Part shown: one piece after another, positions 53,674 to 53,784 of the stretch
Position numbering within the stretch: position 1 is the stretch's first letter
How the letters are laid out: every line of letters starts with the position of its first letter
Source: Candidatus Heimdallarchaeota archaeon
GTDB lineage: Archaea; Asgardarchaeota; Heimdallarchaeia; Heimdallarchaeales; Heimdallarchaeaceae
Length of the DNA: 64,000 nucleotides
Assembly (NCBI GenBank): GCA_019057815.1
Contig: JAHLWR010000005.1
Span: 64,001-128,000, forward strand
Direction of reading: 5' to 3'
Position numbers and translations under genes: made by a program
Notes under the pieces: generated by a model
What the model was told of the DNA's origin: nothing
Seen by the model: only the letters and a program-made list of their open reading frames with translations
Database searches by the model: none

Positions 53674-53784
53674 TCAGTCTACTTCTTCTTCTTTTCCTAT
53701 ACTAAAGGCATGATAGAATAATGCAAATAGAACAGCTAAGACGGCTACAAAAACCACCAGTGTGAAAACTACGTTAAAGTTCAT
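53674..53784 (-). CDS. 36-aa single-pass membrane microprotein, OST4-like
   Basis: MNFNVVFTLVVFVAVLAVLFALFYHAFSIGKEEEVD; own BRE/TATA-like promoter (CGAAAG-CCTTATTAATA) about 25 nt upstream. Confidence 0.6.
   Translation of the reverse strand: MNFNVVFTLVVFVAVLAVLFALFYHAFSIGKEEEVD

Follow-up and report, generated by a model that had tools for sequence, protein, structure and literature searches.

The window analysed here, a 64-kb stretch of a Heimdallarchaeaceae contig, encodes a 36-residue membrane microprotein that we are inclined to regard as an accessory subunit, of Ost4 type, in the AglB/STT3 oligosaccharyltransferase (OST), equivalent to eukaryotic OST4 and probably homologous to it. 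It is the representative, in the Heimdallarchaeaceae, of a microprotein family with members in many Asgard families. The eukaryotic N-glycosylation enzyme has OST4 as its smallest subunit, one that sequence searches trace with difficulty. Because the test for membership in the corresponding Pfam family failed, we word the claim as 'works like, and probably descends with, OST4', a formulation to which we attach moderate confidence; from the evidence set out below we infer its orientation in the membrane, a shared ancestry with OST4 and physical contact with STT3/Ost3.

The ORF is a real, conserved gene under purifying selection. It is present in all 24 Heimdallarchaeaceae genomes searched (E 1e-17 to 4e-6, 45–97% identity), with internal stops absent. 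Averaged over 21 gap-free orthologues, pN is 0.20 versus a pS of 0.66 (pN/pS ∼0.3), and for codons 20–36 the values are 0.13 and 0.67 (ratio 0.19). Column entropy summed per codon position over the same 21 sequences is 24/11/39, the third position varying most, and the microprotein frame is the only one that is open across 21 of the 21. It is the presence in every family genome, together with a pN far below pS and the single shared open frame, that identifies the ORF as a gene. The preliminary description of this DNA had quoted a 36-aa single-TM product with Y24-H25-A, which our translation matches exactly, and had considered that the ORF might not be conserved in relatives; it was found throughout the family and beyond it in the order. 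Orthologues are labelled hypothetical protein in some public records. A homologue search with a 40-aa, upstream-extended version of the window protein returned 28 matches, all unnamed or 'hypothetical' and none with a Pfam domain, and searches of the microprotein against Pfam, the ESM atlas and PDB profiles gave nothing meaningful. Several orthologues have GTG starts (L076:1489-1602 (-), L081:2989-3102 (-) and L079:2977-3087 (-)), and ATG-only small-ORF scans would therefore miss them. Coordinates of the gene and its surroundings are collected in the table.

Table. The microprotein gene and its surroundings, in positions of the 64-kb window (g-labels denote genera of the window's family)
Feature	Position	Strand	Description
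Microprotein CDS	53674-53784	-	ATG to TGA, 36 codons plus stop; from ORF listing and translation
BRE/TATA-like promoter element	53811-53829	-	Core GAAAGCCTTATTAA at 53813-53826, ends ∼27 nt before the ATG; assigned by position and conservation
T-rich run directly 3' of the rpa stop	53854-53867 (about)	-	Terminator-like tract between rpa and the microprotein gene; putative function
T-run 24–34 nt past the microprotein stop	53640-53650	-	Within the 3' end of the convergent 974-aa gene; possible archaeal oligo-T terminator, putative function
Replication protein A (rpa), 704 aa	53868-55982	-	Upstream neighbour; OB-fold and Rep_fac-A_C domains
Sequon-rich protein, 974 aa	50745-53669	+	Signal/TM start, C-terminal TM and K-K-K anchor; convergent
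Protein with central winged-helix HTH, 450 aa	55995-57347	-	Between the OST48-like gene and rpa; arrangement kept in g1, g3 and g4
OST48/Wbp1-like GIFT-domain membrane protein, 360 aa	57426-58508	-	3.6 kb upstream of the microprotein gene, same strand

The protein has a single TM helix at about residues 3–27 (Kyte–Doolittle 19-residue means of 2.4–3.2 over residues 1–29 correspond to one TM segment), carries Y24-H25-A26 at the end of this hydrophobic stretch as part of L22-F-Y24-H25-A-F, and ends in an acidic tail, G30-K-E-E-E-V-D. Its likeness to eukaryotic OST4 (yeast Ost4p; PF10215; PDB 1RKL and 2LAT, chains in 6EZN and 6S7T) lies first of all in size, 36–37 aa versus 34–38 aa in the Asgard family, and in the single-pass arrangement with a very short N-terminal segment and a short polar tail. 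The Y-H of OST4 occupies positions 25–26 and that of the microprotein 24–25, at the C-terminal helix end, and the G-x9-Y of OST4 is paralleled by a small residue at Y-10 in the Asgard family (A14 in the window). The resemblance does not include the OST4 start, M-I-(S/T)-D-x-Q-L, a caveat already attached to the preliminary description: the window protein begins M-N-F-N-V-V, and the M-I-D/N found at the order level is merely reminiscent of it. While OST4 has a neutral or basic tail, that of the window protein is acidic (K-E-E-E) and its N-flank is almost uncharged; with an acidic C-tail and without a basic N-flank, the charge pattern is therefore unlike that of OST4 and the topology ambiguous. 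In OST4 the N-terminus is lumenal and the C-terminus cytosolic, and the Y-H motif lies at the cytosolic helix end. Nor do all members of the wider Asgard family have the OST4 His. Yeast Ost4p, in which residues 18–24 are critical, sits between the Stt3 helices TM1 and TM13 and is needed for incorporation of Ost3/6 (PMC7226087); the best-conserved stretch of the microprotein (residues 20–30) corresponds to these critical residues in the C-terminal half of the helix. The nearest matches among PDB profiles, AcrZ (of AcrB) and Ycf12/Psb30 (photosystem II), are non-significant (E 1.6–6); they resemble the microprotein in size and in the general design of a single helix packing against a large polytopic protein, but differ in motifs, hosts and partners.

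The sequence evidence for homology with OST4 is suggestive, not conclusive. Yeast and human OST4, whose sequences matched PDB chains at 100%, find each other at an E of about 0.07 and 16 bits only, and failed matches therefore carry limited weight. There are several of them. Hmmscan of the microprotein against Pfam gave no Ost4 (PF10215) match at E<=10, the curated cut-off being 25 bits; in its own genome the microprotein ORF is not among the best PF10215 matches; PF10215 run over 201 Asgard genomes found nothing above the cut-off; and the microprotein family profiles did not retrieve OST4 chains from PDB sequences at E<=10. Sub-threshold PF10215 matches in the 201 genomes were mostly junk frames without a start codon, such as a 22-bit match in G131, and were rejected. 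One of them, in G115, is a plausible small ORF, which was left out of the 36-sequence profile described below to avoid circularity, having first been found with PF10215. HMMs of eukaryotic OST4 rank the microprotein low among the 63626 small frames of its genome: 10358th (729th without null2) with the HMM of our comparison set of 70 distinct OST4 sequences, all with PF10215, and 6386th with an HMM of two sequences. The top frames of these scans were likewise junk.

Profile–profile comparison is more favourable. Scores of hhalign against the 70 eukaryotic OST4 sequences rise as the Asgard profile broadens, from P 0.011 (probability 4%, 12 columns) for the family profile A1, through P 1.1e-3 (20%, 14 columns) for the order profile A2, to P 2.3e-4 (44%, 22 columns) for the 36-sequence phylum-wide profile, and the register aligns the small residue with the Gly of OST4 and the two Y-H pairs with each other. 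Column shuffles reached the observed score in 0/150 cases for the order and 0/120 for a 22-sequence profile (A4), and in 9/150 for the family alone. Among natural TM decoys, 315–330 windows taken from long ORFs in the microprotein's own genome, those beating single yeast or human OST4 made up 2% with the full profile, 3% with the order-plus-distant profile and 5–10% with distant members only. The HMM–HMM check proposed in the preliminary description, run here against eukaryotic OST4, thus returns P values of 1e-2 to 2e-4 and a place in roughly the top 2–10% of natural TM decoys. The OST4 match that the same description had drawn from length and Y-H position stands as far as length, register (shifted by one residue) and the TM-end motif are concerned, all of which agree with yeast and human OST4, and falls short at the level of the Pfam Ost4 family and of the eukaryotic HMM, which does not single the ORF out.

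Conservation of the microprotein was followed through the phylum (f-labels denote Asgard families, f1–f4 those of the Heimdall order). In the Heimdallarchaeaceae alignment (A1) M1 and H25 are invariant and F3, F20, L22, Y24 and G30 nearly so, and with the profile built from it each genome of the order (f1–f4) that was searched yielded significant small ORFs, some with a GTG start. The family consensus starts M-D-F; relatives at the order level start M-I-D-F, M-I-N-S or M-L-N-P and end L-x-Y-H-(F/Y/W)-x-(S/A/N)-(L/M)-E-E, with His invariant and Tyr ∼90% conserved in 21–23 sequences of the order. For the phylum-wide search, weak but syntenic candidates were added to the profile and the search was repeated. 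Matches, which are small ORFs of 34–60 aa, were obtained in 18/19 genomes of f16, 5/5 of f20, 3/3 of f17, 4/6 of f22, 4/7 of f23, 8/43 of f10, 5/40 of f13 and 1/10 of f5, in single genomes of f9, f21 and f27, and in 0/4 of f7. Thirty-six sequences align with almost no internal gaps and have in common a short N-terminus, in which position 2–4 is often D/E/N, and the small residue at Y-10, which is A14 in the window and mostly G elsewhere.

Conservation of the Y-H pair itself, to which the preliminary description had given weight, is partial. L-x-Y is followed by His in the Heimdall order, f6, f16 and f23/f25, and by Q/S/M/V in its place in f17, f19, f21, f22, f10 and f27; members of f20 have the His and lack the Tyr. 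A run of acidic residues usually marks the tail, with strongly basic ones instead in the f23/f25 candidates. Distant members are also joined by their surroundings: rpa adjoins the microprotein gene in f1 and f17, the f17 and f16 loci have a common upstream small ORF, those of f16 and f6 a common Lhr helicase neighbour, and those of f23 and f25 three neighbours in common. These synteny chains support the orthology of the distant candidates.

Genes for potential partners are at hand in the same genome, which carries STT3 (162 bits), ribophorin I (54 bits) and an Ost3/6 TM-domain protein (31 bits, above cut-off). STT3 is a 756-aa frame at G000 C12:168968-170119 and the Ost3-like protein a 144-aa frame at C12:161148-161486. 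The OST48-like protein encoded in the window matches Pfam OST48_N with E 1.6e-5 and 24.7 bits (cut-off 36) over profile positions 59–245 of 246, and is composed of a GIFT domain flanked by a hydrophobic helix at the N-terminus and a TM helix at the C-terminus. Its AF2 model (pLDDT 85) is matched by Foldseek to IFT52 GIFT domains and to the OST48/Wbp1 chains 6s7t_G and 6ezn_G with E of 3e-10 to 1e-8, and the gene occurs in 39/41 genomes searched of the order.

Some of these genes lie close to the microprotein gene in several lineages. In g1 and g3 the order is OST48-like, wHTH, rpa, microprotein, with 3.6 kb separating the microprotein gene from the OST48-like gene upstream of it, which has the same orientation; in g3 an Ost3-like gene follows 2.4 kb beyond the OST48-like one, and the whole set spans ∼7 kb. 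The direct divergent neighbour in g2, 184 nt from the microprotein gene, is an Ost3/6-like gene (PF04756, 31.1 bits versus a cut-off of 27), and in g4 (Heimdallarchaeum) the Ost3-like and OST48-like genes are 12 and 19 kb away. Outside the order, f27 has an OST48/GIFT-like gene 0.9 kb from the candidate (tblastn E 2e-15 to the OST48-like protein of the window) and, on the opposite side, a phosphoglucomutase/phosphomannomutase gene 0.4 kb upstream (L144:3023-4396 (-)). The distance from candidate to Ost3-like gene is ∼16 kb in four genera of f10 and 37–48 kb in f16 and f17, and in the remaining families the two are on different contigs. By a rough estimate, two random genes of a 3-Mb genome fall within 50 kb of each other with a chance of ∼3%, to be read with the lineages being not fully independent. 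No OST genes were found within ±3 kb of the f2, f3, f4, f20, f16 and f17 loci, STT3 never adjoins the microprotein gene in the loci inspected, and most immediate neighbours (rpa, Lhr, Cdc6) are unrelated. Linkage to Ost3-like and OST48-like genes in several lineages adds support to the OST reading.

Two other genes found near these loci deserve mention. A 252-aa UFL1/DDRGK-like protein (L152:979-1734 (+), L026:2075-2830 (+)) has E3_UFM1_ligase and DDRGK matches of 27–29 bits, the former above its cut-off; its gene adjoins the Ost3-like gene in g3 and stands directly upstream of the microprotein gene in g4, and it may be a translocon-associated UFMylation-like component. In f25 the candidate is adjoined by a gene for a 180-aa protein (L090:2346-2885 (-)) with a TRAP_alpha match of E 4.8e-4 and 19.8 bits (cut-off 24.7), while its f23 orthologue (L092:1572-2117) has no Pfam match.

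The most serious alternative, which we take to be on the unlikely side, is that these are membrane microproteins conserved among Asgards that share no descent with OST4, their Y-H having arisen by convergence, and that they serve either another membrane machine (the Sec/TRAP translocon, an insertase or a transporter) or the sequon-rich surface protein encoded next to the gene. An aromatic residue plus His is common at helix ends, the sequence statistics versus OST4 are weak, and across the phylum the His varies, the acidic tail being the feature of wider occurrence. Neighbourhoods can also be read in this way: inside the family no neighbour is conserved more tightly than the gene of the convergent ∼970-aa surface protein, a pairing kept in four genera, and there are the weak TRAP-alpha-like neighbour in f25 and the UFL1/DDRGK-like gene in g4. 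Such an independent origin, however, does not account well for the recurrence of Ost3-like/OST48-like linkage in separate lineages, nor for an OST4 register that extends over 22 profile columns and includes the small residue at Y-10, and no other family emerged from Pfam, PDB profiles or the ESM atlas.

If the microprotein is an Ost4-type subunit, as we prefer to think, its helix would pack on archaeal STT3 as Ost4p does between TM1 and TM13 in yeast and, again by analogy with Ost4p, would stabilise the Ost3/6-like subunit of the archaeal complex. Homologues of Ost4 and Ost5 have been announced in most Asgard classes by Eme et al. 2023 (Nature 618:992, PMC10307638), who detected them by a profile–profile search without fixed cut-offs (PMC10307638). 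Such a method would plausibly pick up the microprotein family, whose spread in the same phylum fits the claimed 'most Asgard archaeal classes', and the microprotein is a probable member of this already announced kind. Its novelty is modest, since that work already states the presence of Ost4 homologues in Asgards, a claim missing from the preliminary description. In the portions of its text and supplements available to us, Ost4 sequences, accessions and criteria are not given, and the supplementary discussion there omits Ost4 among the new subunits (PMC10307638). Asgard Ost4 homologues are thus already announced, yet barely documented, and the family described here provides a defined, testable candidate with a clear motif across many Asgard families, backed by selection, by its own promoter and by neighbourhood links to Ost3-like and OST48-like genes.

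A bolder version, tentative and in our opinion slightly doubtful, has OST4 descend directly from this archaeal family. The Asgard ancestor would then already have possessed an STT3-Ost4-Ost3 subcomplex together with OST48 and ribophorin I, the acidic tail would be ancestral, and the loose cluster of Ost3-like, OST48-like, microprotein and UFL1/DDRGK-like genes would be the remnant of a translocon-associated module, which would be open to reconstitution and structural study. Were the microprotein and the Ost3-like protein to bind AglB/STT3 together, the eukaryotic OST core would have acquired its multi-subunit architecture before eukaryotes arose, and it could be reconstituted from archaeal parts. 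More generally, eukaryotic signature proteins can be encoded by genes of less than 40 residues, a class that annotation routinely passes over.

The location of the gene raises another explanation, that the microprotein is functionally part of the transcription unit of rpa, either as a small ORF behind that gene or as a regulatory peptide of replication protein A. In two genera it follows rpa on the same strand after a gap of 83 nt, and rpa is also adjacent in g4 and in the distant family f17. In g4, however, rpa is on the opposite strand, it is not a neighbour in g2, g5 and the families beyond f1 and f17, and a hydrophobic TM peptide has no evident role beside a soluble ssDNA-binding protein. 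A conserved BRE/TATA element of the gene's own and the T-run after rpa also speak against a common unit, which we hold to be very improbable; rpa is probably functionally unrelated to the microprotein.

The core GAAAGCCTTATTAA of this element is present in a single copy in the window. In all aligned Heimdallarchaeaceae loci an element GAAA(A/G)(G/C)CTTATTAA ends 26–29 nt before the ATG, and a similar one precedes the gene at one sister-family locus. Such conservation and position suggest that the microprotein gene has its own BRE/TATA-type promoter, and the spacing between element and ATG would imply a short-leader or leaderless transcript; the T-run after the rpa stop points the same way, to a promoter separate from that of rpa. 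A promoter after the rpa T-tract had been proposed from the window alone, and its conservation across all aligned family loci, with the spacing to the ATG retained, bears this out.

That the ORF arose by chance in AT-rich intergenic DNA can practically be dismissed: it is short and most annotations omit it, but occurrence in 24/24 family genomes, a pN/pS of ∼0.3 and a frame uniquely open in 21 orthologues effectively refute this idea, as do the dominance of third-position variation and the hypothetical proteins of public records.

On its other side the microprotein gene faces the convergent gene for the 974-aa protein, the two stops being 5 nt apart. This protein gave zero Pfam matches even at E<=10 and contains 22 N-x-S/T sequons, versus 12.7 +/- 3.2 in shuffles; together with its predicted membrane anchors, this makes it probably a glycosylated surface protein. 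The window also contains two TnpB-type ORFs (transposon-associated nucleases) with Cas12f1-like TNB / OrfB_IS605 domains, at 49601-50389 (+) and 60017-61975 (-), one of which lies just upstream of the 974-aa gene.
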